Positions 3,424-9,550 of a stretch of 33,563 nt of DNA are shown here, in pieces. The translations under genes and the position numbers were made by a program. The DNA is from a virus (taxonomy: Duplodnaviria; Heunggongvirae; Uroviricota; Caudoviricetes), in the IMG/VR virus record IMGVR_UViG_2690316149_000019; one strand, given 5' to 3'. Every line of letters starts with the position of its first letter. Within the stretch, counting starts at the first letter, position 1. Under the pieces are notes generated by a model, which worked only from the letters and a program-made list of their open reading frames with translations, was not told where the DNA came from and ran no database searches.

Positions 3424-3695
3424 GTATTCGTATTGAAATTGGCGAACGTTATGTCGTTACCAGTGACAGCTTTCAGTTTATTCTCCACGAGAAAAAGAGA
3501 GCGGAAAGCGGTAAAAACGCCGGTCAGGAATGGCTGGCGGTGGTTGGTTATTACCCGAAATTAGGCCAGCTCGTTTCCGGCCTGATGCATCACGATATTC
3601 TGACCGGAAGCGCAAAATCTTTTGCTGATTTAAACGCGCAGGTTGAGCAACTCAGCAAGCGTTGTTCAGAGGCTTTTGGCTCATATGGCCGTTAA
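3420..3695 (+). CDS. Small early protein (P2 orf83 position)
   Basis: 91-aa ORF overlapping its neighbours by a few nucleotides. Confidence 0.6.
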   Translation: MSIRIEIGERYVVTSDSFQFILHEKKRAESGKNAGQEWLAVVGYYPKLGQLVSGLMHHDILTGSAKSFADLNAQVEQLSKRCSEAFGSYGR

Positions 3696-5970
3696 AGCCT
3701 CCGGGCGTTTTGTCCCTCCGTCAGCATTTACCGCAGGCACCGGTAAGGCGTTTACCGGTGCTTATGCATGGAACGCGCCACGCGAGGCTGTCGGGCGCGA
3801 AAGACCTCTTACACGTGACGAGATGCGTCAGGTGCAAGGTGTTTTATCCACGATTAACCGCCTGCCTTACTTTTTGCGCTCGCTGTTTACTTCACGCTAT
3901 GACTACATCCGGCGCAATAAAAGCCCGGTGCACGGGTTTTATTTCCTCACATCTACTTTTCAGCGTCGTTTATGGCCGCGCATTGAGCGTGTGAATCAGC
4001 GCCATGAAATGAACACCGACGCGTCGTTGCTGTTTCTGGCAGAGCGTGACCACTATGCGCGCCTGCCGGGAATGAATGACAAGGAGCTGAAAAAGTTTGC
4101 CGCCCGTATCTCATCGCAGCTTTTCATGATGTATGAGGAACTCTGCGATGCATGGGTTGATGCGCATGGTGAAAAAGAATCGCTGTTTACGGATGAGGCG
4201 CAGGCTCACCTGTATGGTCATGTTGCTGGCGCTGCACGTGCTTTCAATATTTCCCCGCTCTACTGGAAAAAATACCGTAAAGGACAGATGACCACGAGGC
4301 AGGCATATTCTGCCATTGCCCGCCTGTTTAACGATGAGTGGTGGACTCATCAGCTTAAAGGCCAGCGTATGCGCTGGCATGAGGCGTTACTGATAGCTGT
4401 CGGGGAGGTCAATAAAGACCGTTCTCCTTATGCCAGTAAACACGCCATTCGTGATGTGCGTGCGCGCCGCCAGGCAAATCTGGAATTTCTTAAATCGTGT
4501 GACCTTGAAAACAGGGAAACCGGCGAGCGCATCGACCTTATCAGTAAGGTGATGGGCAGTATTTCTAATCCTGAAATTCGCCGGATGGAGCTGATGAACA
4601 CCATTGCCGGTATTGAGCGTTACGCCGCCGCAGAGGGTGATGTGGGGATGTTTATCACGCTGACCGCGCCGTCAAAGTATCACCCGACACGTCAGGTCGG
4701 AAAAGGCGAAAGTAAAACCGTTCAGCTTAATCACGGCTGGAACGATGAGGCATTTAATCCAAAGGATGCGCAGCGTTATCTCTGCCGTATCTGGAGCCTG
4801 ATGCGCACGGCATTCAAGGATAATGATTTACAGGTCTACGGTTTGCGAGTCGTCGAGCCACACCACGACGGAACGCCGCACTGGCATATGATGCTTTTTT
4901 GTCATCCACGCCAGCGTAACCAGATTATCGAAATCATGCGTCGCTATGCGCTCAAAGAGGATGGCGACGAAAGAGGAGCCGCGCGAAACCGTTTTCAGGC
5001 AAAACACCTTAACCGGGGCGGTGCTGCGGGATATATCGCGAAATACATTTCAAAAAACATCGACGGCTATGCACTGGATGGTCAGCTCGATAACGACACC
5101 GGCAGGCCGCTGAAAGACACTGCAGCGGCTGTTACCGCATGGGCGTCAACGTGGCGCATCCCGCAATTTAAAACGGTTGGCCTGCCGACAATGGGGGCTT
5201 ACCGTGAACTACGCAAATTGCCTCGCGGCGTCAGCATTGCTGATGAGTTTGACGAGCGCGTCGAGGCTGCACGCGCCGCCGCAGACAGTGGTGATTTTGC
5301 GCTGTATATCAGCGCGCAGGGCGGGGCAAATGTCCCGCGCGATTGTCAGACTGTCAGGGTCGCCCGTAGTCTGTCGGATGACGTTAACGAGTACGAGGAA
5401 GAAGTCGAGAGAGTGGTCGGCATTTACGCGCCGCATCTCGGCGCGCGTCATATTCATATCACCAGAACGACGGACTGGCGCATTGTGCCGAAAGTTCCAG
5501 TCGTTGAGCCTTTGACTTTAAAAAGCGGCATCGCCGCGCCTCGGAGTCCTGTCAATAACTGTGGAAAGCTCACTGGTGGTGATACTTCGTTACCGGCTCC
5601 CACGCCTTCTGAGCACGCCGCAGCCGTGCTTAATCTGGTTGATGACGGTGTTATCGAATGGAATGACCCGGAGGTCGTGAGGGCGCTCAGGGGCGCATTA
5701 AAACACGGCCTGCGAACGCCAAACCGTCAGCAAAGAAACGGAAGCCCGTTAAAACCGCATGAAATTGCGCCATCGGCCAGACTGACCCGGTCGGAAAGAA
5801 TGCAAATTACCCGTATCCGCGTTGACCTTGCTCAGAACGGTATCAGGCCGCAGCGATGGGAGCTTGAGGCGCTGGCGCGTGGCGCGATCGTAAATTATGA
5901 CGGGAAAAAATTCACGTATCCGGTCGCTGATGAGTGGCCGGGATTCTCAACAGTAATGGAGTGGACATAA
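3685..5970 (+). CDS. A: Rolling-circle replication initiator endonuclease A (HUH superfamily)
   Basis: Contains the HUH metal-binding motif (EPHHDGTPHWHMMLF) and the catalytic tyrosine motif (YIAKYISKNIDGY). 761 aa from ATG 3685; the six-frame ORF start at 3643 is an upstream in-frame extension that overlaps the preceding gene. Confidence 0.93.
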   Translation: MAVKASGRFVPPSAFTAGTGKAFTGAYAWNAPREAVGRERPLTRDEMRQVQGVLSTINRLPYFLRSLFTSRYDYIRRNKSPVHGFYFLTSTFQRRLWPRIERVNQRHEMNTDASLLFLAERDHYARLPGMNDKELKKFAARISSQLFMMYEELCDAWVDAHGEKESLFTDEAQAHLYGHVAGAARAFNISPLYWKKYRKGQMTTRQAYSAIARLFNDEWWTHQLKGQRMRWHEALLIAVGEVNKDRSPYASKHAIRDVRARRQANLEFLKSCDLENRETGERIDLISKVMGSISNPEIRRMELMNTIAGIERYAAAEGDVGMFITLTAPSKYHPTRQVGKGESKTVQLNHGWNDEAFNPKDAQRYLCRIWSLMRTAFKDNDLQVYGLRVVEPHHDGTPHWHMMLFCHPRQRNQIIEIMRRYALKEDGDERGAARNRFQAKHLNRGGAAGYIAKYISKNIDGYALDGQLDNDTGRPLKDTAAAVTAWASTWRIPQFKTVGLPTMGAYRELRKLPRGVSIADEFDERVEAARAAADSGDFALYISAQGGANVPRDCQTVRVARSLSDDVNEYEEEVERVVGIYAPHLGARHIHITRTTDWRIVPKVPVVEPLTLKSGIAAPRSPVNNCGKLTGGDTSLPAPTPSEHAAAVLNLVDDGVIEWNDPEVVRALRGALKHGLRTPNRQQRNGSPLKPHEIAPSARLTRSERMQITRIRVDLAQNGIRPQRWELEALARGAIVNYDGKKFTYPVADEWPGFSTVMEWT

Positions 5971-6422
5971 TGGCAAAAATTCACGAGGTAAAGCTGCACG
6001 CAAAATATTTCGACCTTGTGCTGGAAGGAAAGAAACGCGCAGAGTTTCGGAAAAATGACCGTAATTATGAGCGCGGGGACACGTTGATTTTGCATGAATG
6101 GGTGCAGGGTGTGTATACGGGGCGAAAGGTTGAAGCCCGGATAACAGATGTTACTGACCTGTCAGACTGGCTGGAAGATTATGTCTTGCTAAGTATTGAG
6201 CTGCTTAATACAGGTGCATATGAGATTGTGAACTGGAAAGAACTTAGTGAGCGTGGTCTGGTATTCAGAATTAATCATGAAATTATGCATCAGCTCGGCC
6301 TTGCTGTTATGTATGAACCAGAGACGGGGATGTCTGGCGGGGCAATGGTTGCCACGGATGGAGCATGGAACTATTCAGATGAACAGATGGAGCGTGCACA
6401 GCAAAACGGGTGGCTTGGATAA
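5970..6422 (+). CDS. Accessory protein with N-terminal ASCH/DUF3850-like (PUA-fold) domain and unknown C-terminal half
   Basis: N-terminus MAKIHEVKLHAKYFDLVLEGKKRAEFRKNDRNYERGDTLILHEW resembles DUF3850/ASCH domains. Start overlaps the A stop (TAATG). Occupies the position where P2 carries orf91/tin/old. Confidence 0.6.
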   Translation: MAKIHEVKLHAKYFDLVLEGKKRAEFRKNDRNYERGDTLILHEWVQGVYTGRKVEARITDVTDLSDWLEDYVLLSIELLNTGAYEIVNWKELSERGLVFRINHEIMHQLGLAVMYEPETGMSGGAMVATDGAWNYSDEQMERAQQNGWLG

Positions 6423-6655
6423 TGCACAGAATGCCAGGCGAGATACCGCACCATAAAACTAAAAATATCAAGCTGATGGCTGTTGTTCACCGTCTACAGC
6501 AGATTATGGTCAACGAAAATCTGACGCCCGATGAGCTGGTCGGGTGTGCCGAAATAGTCCGGGATAATTACAGACGGTTTAACGATATCAGTAGACAGAA
6601 AAGTGAGACATTTCGGCCAGCTAACATGCCAAAACCACCACCACGCAGGCCGTAG
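6422..6655 (+). CDS. Small hypothetical protein
   Basis: 77-aa ORF, start overlapping the upstream stop (TAATG); proline- and basic-rich C-terminus, no recognisable domain. Could be spurious. Confidence 0.35.
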   Translation: MHRMPGEIPHHKTKNIKLMAVVHRLQQIMVNENLTPDELVGCAEIVRDNYRRFNDISRQKSETFRPANMPKPPPRRP

Positions 6656-6888
6656 AGAACCCCGCTATCCATGAAACTTGCTTTCAGGGAGGCGGGTTGA
6701 ATAAAAGTAGCTTTGCCGAAAAGTCTAACTATCTTGGTTTTTGCTGGTCCAAAGTTAATAAACAAACCTGCTTGTATGCAGCGGGTTTCCATATTGCCGT
6801 TTCGTATGCATGCCGCACCGTGCAAAGAGTATGAAAAATGTTATGGAAAAACGGGGATTAGTGTTATATTAATGGCTGAAAAGTGGTC

Positions 6889-6917
6889 TTGACACAGGTT
6901 GTTGTGTGTGGTAAGGC
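6889..6917 (+). promoter_or_regulatory. Candidate sigma70 promoter for the peptidase gene
   Basis: TTGACA at 6889-6894 followed 17 nt later by a weak -10 (TAAGGC); AGGAGG Shine-Dalgarno at 6944-6949 before ATG 6954. Confidence 0.3.
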
Positions 6918-6953
6918 TGTATCCCTTTGGCATTCAAAATGTAGGAGGCAACC

Positions 6954-7430
6954 ATGAGCATCGCAGCTAAAAATCTGCTTAATCGCTATTGGGATCGCCG
7001 ACTACCTGTCGATCCGTTTAAGCTCGCCGCAGCGTGGGGTGCAAGAGTGGAGCCGCTCAGGGAACCAGCGAATGGGTTAAGTGGTTCAGCCGTAATAGAA
7101 AATGGCATACCTTATATTTATTTTAACTCAAATGAACATTACAACCGCCAACGCTTTACTGTAGCGCATGAGCTCGGTCATCATGTTTTAGGGCATACTC
7201 AAGACGGAGAATATCATCGCGATATTGTAGGCAACTACTCAACTGGCATCCGTGATTATCGTGAAATAGAAGCTAACCAGTTTGCTGCAGAGCTATTGAT
7301 GCCGGAAGAGGCCATTCGTCAACTAGTGTCGCGTATAGGCGTTGATAGTACATTACGTTTGGCAAACATATTTAACGTTTCTGAGGCTGCTATGCACTGG
7401 CGTCTTAAAGCGTTGGGTATGGCTTACTAA
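6954..7430 (+). CDS. ImmA/IrrE-family (COG2856-like) zinc metallopeptidase
   Basis: HEXXH motif in FTVAHELGHHVLGH and a downstream glutamate-containing motif (EANQFAAELLMP). 158 aa with a strong AGGAGG ribosome-binding site. Confidence 0.75.
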   Translation: MSIAAKNLLNRYWDRRLPVDPFKLAAAWGARVEPLREPANGLSGSAVIENGIPYIYFNSNEHYNRQRFTVAHELGHHVLGHTQDGEYHRDIVGNYSTGIRDYREIEANQFAAELLMPEEAIRQLVSRIGVDSTLRLANIFNVSEAAMHWRLKALGMAY

Positions 7431-7460
7431 TACCCTCTTTAACTTTTTTCAAACCGGTTT

Positions 7461-7495
7461 AAAATCACCATTATTTTATTAATAATGGTGATTTT
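7461..7495. promoter_or_regulatory. Perfect 15-bp inverted repeat (aaaatcaccattatt / aataatggtgatttt, 5-nt loop) abutting the ATG of the membrane-protein gene
   Basis: Seen in sequence. Preceded by the 10-bp palindrome aaaccggttt (7451-7460) and followed by a T-run; the right arm contains the only Shine-Dalgarno-like element (GGTGA) for ATG 7498. Confidence 0.6.
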
Positions 7496-7497
7496 TT

Positions 7498-8118
7498 ATG
7501 GCAGATATCGACCTCTCTGGCCAATCTCCGGCTCAGTCTTCCCAGCCATCCAAAACTTCAACCTTTCCACATCCACCTAGCGATGCCGATCCAGATATTT
7601 TGTTACGTAGAGAAGTGCATGATGGCATGGAAAGGAGGGGAATGCGCTTAGTTTTGTCAGCCACCGTACTTTTTTTTGCCATAATGTTTTTATGGAAAGG
7701 TCTGTATTTCGCTCTCGAAGTCGGAAATGGTTTGCTTGCGGCTAAAAGTAGTATTGTTTCAGCGTTGGCACAAAATGATGAAAAGGTTGTTTGCGAACCT
7801 AAAACTAAATGTATTGAGCCTAAACAGCAGACAATGAAACCTACAGAAAAAACTCCCGGCATGTCAACAAAGGGTGATAGAGTAATGCCAAACTTATCTA
7901 CAGATTGGCTTTCTGCAAGTTCGCTAATTGCCATAGTCGCTTTCATCCTTGGTGTTGGCTTGACGTTAATCCTTACCCTACTTAAGTCCGCTTTTCATCA
8001 TCCGACTGATAAAAATCTCAATGAGCAAAAAACAACAGATGCGATTGAGTTGGCGACTCCCTTAAGTGAGTTAATCGCGGGTATTATTAATTATCTCAAG
8101 AGCAAATTTTCTAAATAA
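7498..8118 (+). CDS. Membrane protein of unknown function (two predicted transmembrane helices)
   Basis: 206 aa with hydrophobic stretches LVLSATVLFFAIMFLWKGLYFAL and LIAIVAFILGVGLTLILTLL and a Pro/Ser/Thr-rich N-terminus; lower GC than the phage core. Confidence 0.6.
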   Translation: MADIDLSGQSPAQSSQPSKTSTFPHPPSDADPDILLRREVHDGMERRGMRLVLSATVLFFAIMFLWKGLYFALEVGNGLLAAKSSIVSALAQNDEKVVCEPKTKCIEPKQQTMKPTEKTPGMSTKGDRVMPNLSTDWLSASSLIAIVAFILGVGLTLILTLLKSAFHHPTDKNLNEQKTTDAIELATPLSELIAGIINYLKSKFSK

Positions 8119-8327
8119 CGTCCTCTTGGTTATTTTTTAAATCAGCACCATTAGTGCCGGTTTTTTTATGCTGTTTTACTGTAATTTCCCTGTTTTTAAG
8201 CCGTGCATGCAGCAGGTGCATGGTTTTGCATGCGCAGGAAGTGTCCGTTCTGGCCGAGCACCGGCAGAACGGACGCGGATCCAGAACGGTCATGCAACTG
8301 CATTCAAACCACCCCATGAAGCGGGCG

Positions 8328-8346
8328 GGCGAGGCGGGGAAAGCAC
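8328..8346. other. cos: cos site (19-nt cohesive end sequence, P2-type)
   Basis: ggcgaggcggggaaagcac matches the P2 cohesive-end sequence as I recall it. It lies between the accessory locus and Q, where cos sits in P2, and a 10-bp stem-loop (8243-8274) is nearby. Confidence 0.7.
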
Positions 8347-8515
8347 TGCGCGCTGGCGGTGGTGCTGATTTTATTTTTTCAGCGTCTGAGCGCGTCGTGA
8401 TGGCGTTTAGATTGTGCGCCGGGGCGTTGGTGTGTCTGCGGGCTGTTTTGTGCGGTGGTGAGCGTGTGAGGGCGTGATGACGGGGGGTAAAAAAGCCGCC
8501 CGCAGGCGGCGATGT

Positions 8516-9550
8516 TCAGCCGTTGTCAGTGTCCAGTGAGTAGTTTTTAAAGCGGATGACCTCCTGACCGAGCCAGCCGTTTATCTCGCGGATCCTGTCC
8601 TGTAACGGGATAAGCTCATTGCGGACAAAGACCTTTGCCACTTTCTCAATATCACCCAGCGACCCGACGTTCTCCGGCTTGCCGCCCATCAACTGAAAGG
8701 GGATGCGGTGCGCGTCCAGCAGGTCAGCGGCGCTGGCTTTTTTGATATTAAAAAAATCGTCCTTCGTTGCCACTTCACTGAGCGGGATAATTTTAATGCC
8801 GTCGGCTTTCCCCTGCGGGGCATAGAGAAACAGATTTTTAAAGTTGTTGCGGCCTTTCGACTTGACCATGTTTTCGCGAAGCATTTCGATATCGTTGCGA
8901 TCCTGCACGGCATCGGTAACGTACATGATATATCCGGCATGAGCGCCGTTTTCGTAATACTTGCGGCGGAACAGCGTGGCCGACTCATTCAGCCAGGCAG
9001 AATTAAGGGCGCTGAGATATTCCGGCAGGCCGTACAGCTCCTGATTAATATCCGGCTCCAGCAGGTGAAACACGGAGCCGGGTGCGAAGGCTGTCGGCTC
9101 GTTGAAGGACGGCACCCACCAGTAAACATCCTCCTCCACACCTCGGCGGGTATATTTTGCCGGTGAGGTTTCCAGTCTGATGACCTTACCGGTGGTGCTG
9201 TAACGCTTTTCCAGAAACGCATTACCGAACACCAGAAAATCCAGCACAAAGCGGCTGAAATCCTGCTGGGAAAGCCACGGATGCGGGATAAATGTCGAGG
9301 CCAGAATATTACGTTTGACGTAAATCGGTGAGCTGTGATGCACGGCAGCACGCAGGCTTTTTGCCAGACCGGTAAAGCTGATCGGTGGCTCATACCATCT
9401 GCCGTTACTGATGCACTCGACGTAATCCAGAATGTCACGGCGGTCGAGTACCGGCACCGGCTCACCAAAGGTGAATGCTTCCATTTTCGGGGCGCTGGCG
9501 GTCATTGTTTTTGCCGCAGGTTGCGGTGTTTTCCCTTTTTTCTTGCTCAT
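8516..9550 (-). CDS. Q: Portal protein
   Basis: 344-aa ORF matching P2 gpQ in length and position; start overlaps the stop of P. Confidence 0.9.
   Translation of the reverse strand: MSKKKGKTPQPAAKTMTASAPKMEAFTFGEPVPVLDRRDILDYVECISNGRWYEPPISFTGLAKSLRAAVHHSSPIYVKRNILASTFIPHPWLSQQDFSRFVLDFLVFGNAFLEKRYSTTGKVIRLETSPAKYTRRGVEEDVYWWVPSFNEPTAFAPGSVFHLLEPDINQELYGLPEYLSALNSAWLNESATLFRRKYYENGAHAGYIMYVTDAVQDRNDIEMLRENMVKSKGRNNFKNLFLYAPQGKADGIKIIPLSEVATKDDFFNIKKASAADLLDAHRIPFQLMGGKPENVGSLGDIEKVAKVFVRNELIPLQDRIREINGWLGQEVIRFKNYSLDTDNG

Follow-up and report, generated by a model that had tools for sequence, protein, structure and literature searches.

What do the two small reading frames behind the replication initiator gene A contribute to a P2-like phage, and do they belong to replication or to the defences of a prophage? 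The question was raised by the IMG/VR virus record IMGVR_UViG_2690316149_000019 (Caudoviricetes), a stretch of 33,563 nucleotides that is referred to below as the window. The original prediction had placed an ASCH/DUF3850-like gene, translationally coupled to A, at the head of positions 5970–6655, and had seen in the PUA-like fold a hint that its product senses or excludes modified phage DNA or RNA.

Gene organisation and expression signals

The block is made up of the following features.

3685–5970, plus strand: gene A, the upstream cistron, encoding gpA, the HUH rolling-circle initiator (Pfam Phage_GPA, 2.9e-124)
5958–5961, plus strand: GGAG, 8 nt upstream of the ORF-1 ATG
5968–5972, plus strand: TAATG junction of A and ORF-1, read directly, 1-nt overlap
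5970–6422, plus strand: ORF-1, 150 aa plus stop, an acidic (pI 5.1) two-domain protein
6420–6424, plus strand: second TAATG junction, ORF-1 and ORF-2, read directly
6422–6655, plus strand: ORF-2, 77 aa plus stop, basic (pI 10.3)

Translation of gene A from the ATG at 3685 gave MAVKASGRF..., which matches the start of P2 gpA, and the gene is arranged as in P2 and Wphi. One base is common to the A stop codon (TAA, 5968–5970) and the ORF-1 start codon (ATG, 5970–5972), and the ORF-1 stop codon (TAA, 6420–6422) overlaps the ORF-2 start codon (ATG, 6422–6424); both junctions, as well as the coordinates 5970–6655, thus proved to be exactly as predicted. Only a weak GGGTGG precedes the ORF-2 ATG. Both frames are real genes according to their Pfam/PHROG matches and dN/dS values (ORF-2 0.04–0.13, ORF-1 approximately 0.18, A 0.07–0.12), and the substitution patterns indicate purifying selection on the pair across genera. 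Minus-strand frames of 33–85 aa within 5970–6655 were discounted because the Pfam and PHROG matches fall on the plus-strand frames.

Overlaps of 1 nt are frequent in operons, and a single one is little proof. The order A, ORF-1, ORF-2 recurs in Enterobacter (L004), Salmonella (L007) and E. coli (L012–16), with overlaps of 1–4 nt or gaps of at most 5 nt: A and ORF-1 are joined by an ATGA overlap in L007 and separated by 5 nt in L004, and ORF-1 and ORF-2 are joined by an ATGA overlap in L004 and separated by 1 nt in L007. In relatives with such tight coupling, ORF-1 is just 49–54 % identical, compared with 75–84 % for A.

A promoter scan of positions 5400–8600 returned five promoter-like sites, against 4.7±2.7 expected by chance. 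Two of them, at the junctions, arise from TAAT itself and end on start codons, and therefore cannot serve ORF-1 or ORF-2. Between A, ORF-1 and ORF-2 there is no intergenic space and no promoter or terminator signal above chance. The consensus scan gave no plus-strand terminator right after ORF-2, the folding stability of the intergenic region 6640–6960 was like that of shuffled sequence (z=-0.19), and an Rfam scan of 5400–8600 at E≤1 found no RNA element, the sole match being a chance one to miR-451. The best explanation is that the P2-type early (replication) operon ends with ORF-1 and ORF-2 as its final two cistrons; co-expression with that operon, and not from a moron promoter, had been anticipated and is supported by the coupling kept in diverged prophages and by the lack of signals above chance. 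In P2, the early operon is repressed in lysogens by the C repressor. It is conceivable that A contains a promoter that works in lysogens.

Relationship to P2 Orf91 and distribution

Judged by sequence comparison, ORF-1 is already known: it is the ortholog, and indeed the intact form, of P2 Orf91 (RefSeq "DUF3850 domain-containing protein"), the product of a gene that has long been known and is uncharacterised. It matches phrog_1812 over its full length (150/150, 8e-83), is 99.3 % identical to its counterpart in Peduovirus P24A7b, and is 100 % identical at the DNA level to a gene of E. coli 602687 annotated "DUF3850 domain-containing protein". Over residues 1–74, which span the whole ASCH domain, P2 Orf91 (NP_046796) and Wphi gp91 are 97–100 % identical to ORF-1, and their genes hold the corresponding position, with a start that overlaps the end of A (P2 coordinates: end of A 30319, start of Orf91 30316), as also in Wphi. 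The proteins are not collinear over their full length, the homology to P2 stopping at the following point.

6190/6191, plus strand: end of homology to P2, at codon 74 of ORF-1, from the DNA alignment of the window, P2 and Wphi

This position is the left edge of the P2 tin/old insertion, and P2 retains just the first 74 codons because the insertion replaced the remainder. P2 Orf91 (109 aa) diverges after codon 74 and has no DUF7415 domain, and P2 lacks ORF-2, whereas the window carries the intact two-domain gene together with ORF-2; the P2 protein is the truncated or chimeric form. Three single-base insertions divide the gene in the Wphi record into gp91, the ASCH part, and gp92, a DUF7415 fragment.

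Most of the segment is carried by approximately 344 of 5,426 complete E. coli genomes, and the arrangement typified by P0141 is listed in over 2,000 index blocks. The module, missing from many P2-like prophages of E. coli and truncated in P2, is therefore dispensable. Identification as a conserved P2 core protein had been named as an objection to the original prediction; the P2 ortholog exists, but within the P2 family ORF-1 ranks as a conserved accessory gene and not as core.

One rival reading is a decaying or selfish passenger without current function, kept only by its position between an essential gene and a recombination hotspot. Truncations and chimeras are frequent: the tail of P2 Orf91 and the frameshifts in Wphi gp91/gp92 are examples, as are fusions in degraded prophages to Cox, to gpD and to a protein with a PF26079 domain. 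The absences just described fit as well. The intact frames under purifying selection across genera, the abundance of the P0141-type arrangement and the coupling kept in three different junction forms nevertheless make this the least probable of the readings considered.

The ASCH/DUF3850 domain

5979–6197, plus strand: ASCH/DUF3850 domain of ORF-1, residues 4–76

The predicted ASCH/DUF3850-like identity of ORF-1 was upheld. Residues 4–76 match Pfam DUF3850 (PF12961; 6.5e-18, 65.1 bits, cut-off 22.9) and ASCH (PF04266; 7.7e-11, 43.0 bits, cut-off 21.2), the domain has the PUA-like β-barrel of the ASCH superfamily, and residues 1–84 match phrog_986 ("RNA-binding protein"; 3.1e-42). The pocket octapeptide GxKxx(E/T)xR is present as G20-K21-K22-R23-A24-E25-F26-R27, with K22 and R27 invariant among orthologs and E25 found in most. 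The N-terminal part of ORF-1 is accordingly a minimal ASCH β-barrel that keeps the Lys-Glu-Arg pocket motif, and it is followed by a flexible linker to the second domain. In three ASCH-bearing relatives (Enterobacter/Leclercia subgroup) Glu25 is replaced by Leu, so that a common catalytic role is not guaranteed.

ASCH proteins with the Lys, Glu-or-Thr, Arg motif deacetylated ac4C in 19 of 19 cases tested, and their expression in E. coli lowered tRNA ac4C in every case (bioRxiv 10.64898/2026.02.27.708502); free ac4C is the substrate of EOLA1 in nucleotide salvage (bioRxiv 10.64898/2026.08.01.741249). A structural study, as far as it is cited in bioRxiv 10.64898/2026.02.27.708502, describes ZmASCH, EOLA1 and TRIP4 as inactive, and the ac4C activity of Glu-type ASCH proteins is disputed in the literature. 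The ac4C amidohydrolases E. coli YqfB (PDB 9KYF/1TE7), human EOLA1 and TRIP4-ASCH are just 12–15 % identical to ORF-1, whose barrel is approximately 25 residues shorter than that of the YqfB/EOLA1-type ASCH proteins; the N-terminal Ser/Thr position of the TRIP4-like clade appears, from the alignment, as an invariant His5 in ORF-1. The Enterococcus faecalis "activating signal cointegrator" (PDB 3IUW) is a structural-genomics DUF3850 protein of 83 aa that, unlike ORF-1, stands alone, with neither DUF7415 nor a replication-operon context. DUF3850 is also shared with phage and prophage ParB-CTPase-DUF3850 fusions (PNAS 2025, PMC12704722), one of which binds CTP, a cytidine ligand; there the partner is a ParB-CTPase encoded with parA, whereas in ORF-1 it is DUF7415 and the neighbour is gpA. 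Apart from this survey, the literature mentions "DUF3850" only in passing.

The DUF7415 domain and ORF-2

6225–6419, plus strand: DUF7415 domain of ORF-1, residues 86–150, pI 4.7

This C-terminal domain had been missed in the original prediction. Pfam DUF7415 (PF24187) was matched over residues 86–128 (1.9e-14, 54.0 bits, cut-off 27), the predicted order of elements is helix-helix-strand-strand-helix, and alignment with 35 relatives gave the conserved motif NW.ELS..GLVFRIN.EI.H.LGLA...G.S.GA.VA.DG.W.YS. DUF7415 is a small, phage-only domain, and it, not ASCH, is the part of ORF-1 that tracks replication genes. An HExxH metalloprotease motif (HEIMH, residues 103–107) was rejected because some orthologs have Tyr for His103 and Asn for His107. 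A literature search returned no paper containing "DUF7415".

Among relatives the N-terminal partner of DUF7415 is interchangeable. In Citrobacter (L020), gpA is followed by a DUF7415 protein without ASCH and then by ORF-2; in Lelliottia (L018/19), a DUF7415 protein comes after a Toprim primase, their genes overlapping by 1 nt. The DUF7415 gene lies directly upstream of gpA, overlapping it, in Pectobacterium (L023); in Erwiniaceae (L022) a 50-nt gap separates it from gpA downstream, and it overlaps the zf-DksA/TraR gene before it. In both it takes the P2 orf83 slot of the replication operon. Part of this "association with replication genes" could be positional, because the slot beside A is the left edge of a known recombination hotspot.

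An exhaustive DUF7415 search (327 representatives) yielded fusions to a dATP/dGTP pyrophosphohydrolase (three representatives), a thymidylate kinase and an Rv2179c-like exoribonuclease. The majority of fusion partners are without annotation, and in ten long DUF7415 fusion proteins searched against PHROGs the other partner regions matched only unknown-function families; some fusions in metagenome-predicted proteins could be gene-calling artefacts. In Citrobacter phage Miller and the T1-like phage JMPW1, the DUF7415/DUF3850 neighbourhoods hold only unannotated small early genes, with a NUDIX hydrolase gene two genes upstream of the DUF7415 gene in Miller. Several Klebsiella T4-like phages have an anaerobic ribonucleotide reductase (nrdD) annotated beside the DUF7415 match.

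ORF-2 is the strongly conserved, unannotated partner of orf91. It consists of a highly conserved helical core (residues 8–56) and a Pro/Arg-rich tail ending in PPPRRP, matches phrog_11386 (7.5e-42) and is 67–78 % identical in Enterobacter and Salmonella relatives; its cluster comprises 200 matches across Enterobacteriaceae, in none of which a Pfam domain was found. At L017, a Toprim/DUF5906 primase gene precedes one in which an ORF-2-like segment, a ClpX-type zinc finger and DUF7415 are fused; this joining of ORF-2 to DUF7415 comes from one contig of 3.5 kb. In the fusion protein P0072, the N-terminus shows homology to ORF-2 (BLASTP 6e-8; hhalign 90.5 %, E 1.4e-6), and its ClpX-type zinc finger was detected at a sub-threshold E of 5.7e-4. 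The DUF7415 domain and ORF-2 carry complementary charges (pI 4.7 versus 10.3).

These contexts could be read as those of a non-enzymatic replication factor, in which DUF7415, with or without ORF-2, binds gpA or a host replication protein and tunes initiation or rolling-circle replication, the ASCH barrel being a mere handle for nucleic acid or ligand. DUF7415 genes flank or overlap initiators of two unrelated types (HUH gpA and Toprim primase) on either side, including the orf83 slot; the exchangeable N-terminal partner, the loss of Glu25 in some orthologs and the zinc finger of P0072 agree with this. On the other hand, P2 replicates normally with the ASCH fragment alone and without ORF-2, which is partly established P2 biology, the standalone DUF7415 genes of T4- and T5-like phages do not adjoin initiator genes, and the acidity of the whole of ORF-1 argues against DNA binding. 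On balance, such a factor is considered unlikely.

Defence and counter-defence

Neither ORF-1 nor ORF-2 matched a PADLOC family at E≤0.01 or any NCBIfam family; the downstream M78 peptidase did give a PADLOC match (capP-like, 3.8e-31). Pfam assigned only DUF3850/ASCH and DUF7415 to ORF-1 and nothing to ORF-2, so that neither protein showed a nuclease or other effector domain. The pair does not resemble a toxin-antitoxin system, being coupled to A and not autonomous, with no toxin or antitoxin match in Pfam, NCBIfam or PADLOC. Type IV restriction enzymes (with EVE, SRA, YTH or ASCH readers) share with ORF-1 a PUA-like β-barrel able to flip out and read a modified base; in contrast to them, ORF-1 and ORF-2 have no nuclease or NTPase effector, either joined or encoded with them, lie in a lytic operon and match no defence model.

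The proposal that ORF-1 is a PUA-like sensor excluding superinfecting phages with modified DNA (such as the T-even phages), that is, a lysogenic-conversion or defence gene, is therefore not sustained. The coupling of ORF-1 to A in an operon that is repressed in lysogens argues against an exclusion role exercised from the prophage, whereas tin and old, with which P2 does exclude other phages, are served by a separate promoter on the opposite strand. The same module also occurs inside replication operons upstream of gpA, and the annotated DUF7415 partners are nucleotide-metabolism enzymes. What speaks for exclusion is the location at the edge of the P2 defence hotspot (Rousset et al. 2022), and with it the proposal is still very improbable. 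Neither of the two P2-hotspot papers (Rousset et al. 2022; NAR 2026 survey) mentions orf91 or ASCH.

Another rival reading is a counter-defence or host-takeover role, in which the pair is produced at an early lytic stage and disables a host system. It might erase host tRNA ac4C, remove a modified cytosine nucleotide or signal, or shield the nucleotide pool from depletion-type defences. Early lytic expression, as deduced from the coupling to A, would suit this role, as would the dispensable and patchy occurrence that the module has in common with anti-defence genes, the faster evolution of ORF-1 relative to A (identities given above), the small early DUF3850/DUF7415 genes of lytic T1-, T4-, T5- and T7-like phages, and the lowering of tRNA ac4C by every ASCH protein tested in E. 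coli. An anti-defence or host-interaction role was also suggested for the phage ParB-DUF3850 fusions (PMC12704722). However, no known anti-defence family was matched, no target system is identifiable, the high conservation of ORF-2 is unlike that of arms-race proteins, and the module is absent from the text of the NAR 2026 survey, which reports very few anti-defence genes in P2-like prophages. We regard counter-defence as doubtful, to the same degree as the non-enzymatic factor.

Proposed role

The reading preferred here, tentatively, is that the pair, though dispensable, assists nucleotide or nucleic-acid housekeeping in connection with replication and does not serve prophage exclusion; an ASCH pocket would be combined with docking through DUF7415 and ORF-2. 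Our best guess, made with little confidence, is an enzyme acting on N4-modified cytosine, or a reader of it, that is coupled to replication. ORF-1 and ORF-2 would be produced alongside gpA in the lytic cycle, but not in the lysogen. By analogy with what was shown for YqfB and EOLA1, the ASCH pocket would bind, and probably deacylate, N4-modified cytosine, either free as a nucleoside or nucleotide or accessible as a base in RNA. The acidic DUF7415 and the basic ORF-2 may dock the enzyme to the replication machinery or a host factor. A broader version, which we hold to be more doubtful than either of the alternatives just compared, is that DUF7415 and ORF-2 form an unrecognised docking module that tethers "sanitising" enzymes of the nucleotide pool or nucleic acids to the replication apparatus or to a common host target. 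The tethered enzymes would then include the ASCH amidohydrolase, the MazG-like dATP/dGTP pyrophosphohydrolase, the thymidylate kinase and the 3'-5' exoribonuclease.

Significance for P2-like phages

The gene itself is ordinary: an annotated, widespread accessory gene of the P2 family with a known fold. For studies of P2-like phages and of the gpA-gpQ defence hotspot it is useful that the reference P2 Orf91 is a truncated remnant; the left boundary of the hotspot in P2 lies inside orf91, and surveys from gpA to gpQ therefore count orf91 and ORF-2 as hotspot content. The occurrence of DUF7415 beside replication initiators and nucleotide-metabolism enzymes provides a testable lead for two domains of unknown function. 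Should the docking module be real, it would amount to a modular analogue, of minimal size, to the T4 dNTP-synthetase complex, and P2 orf91 would then become the first phage enzyme known to remove N4-modified cytosine in the service of replication. If the ASCH domain does hydrolyse N4-acylcytosine, the ac4C-eraser activity newly described for ASCH proteins would extend to phages.

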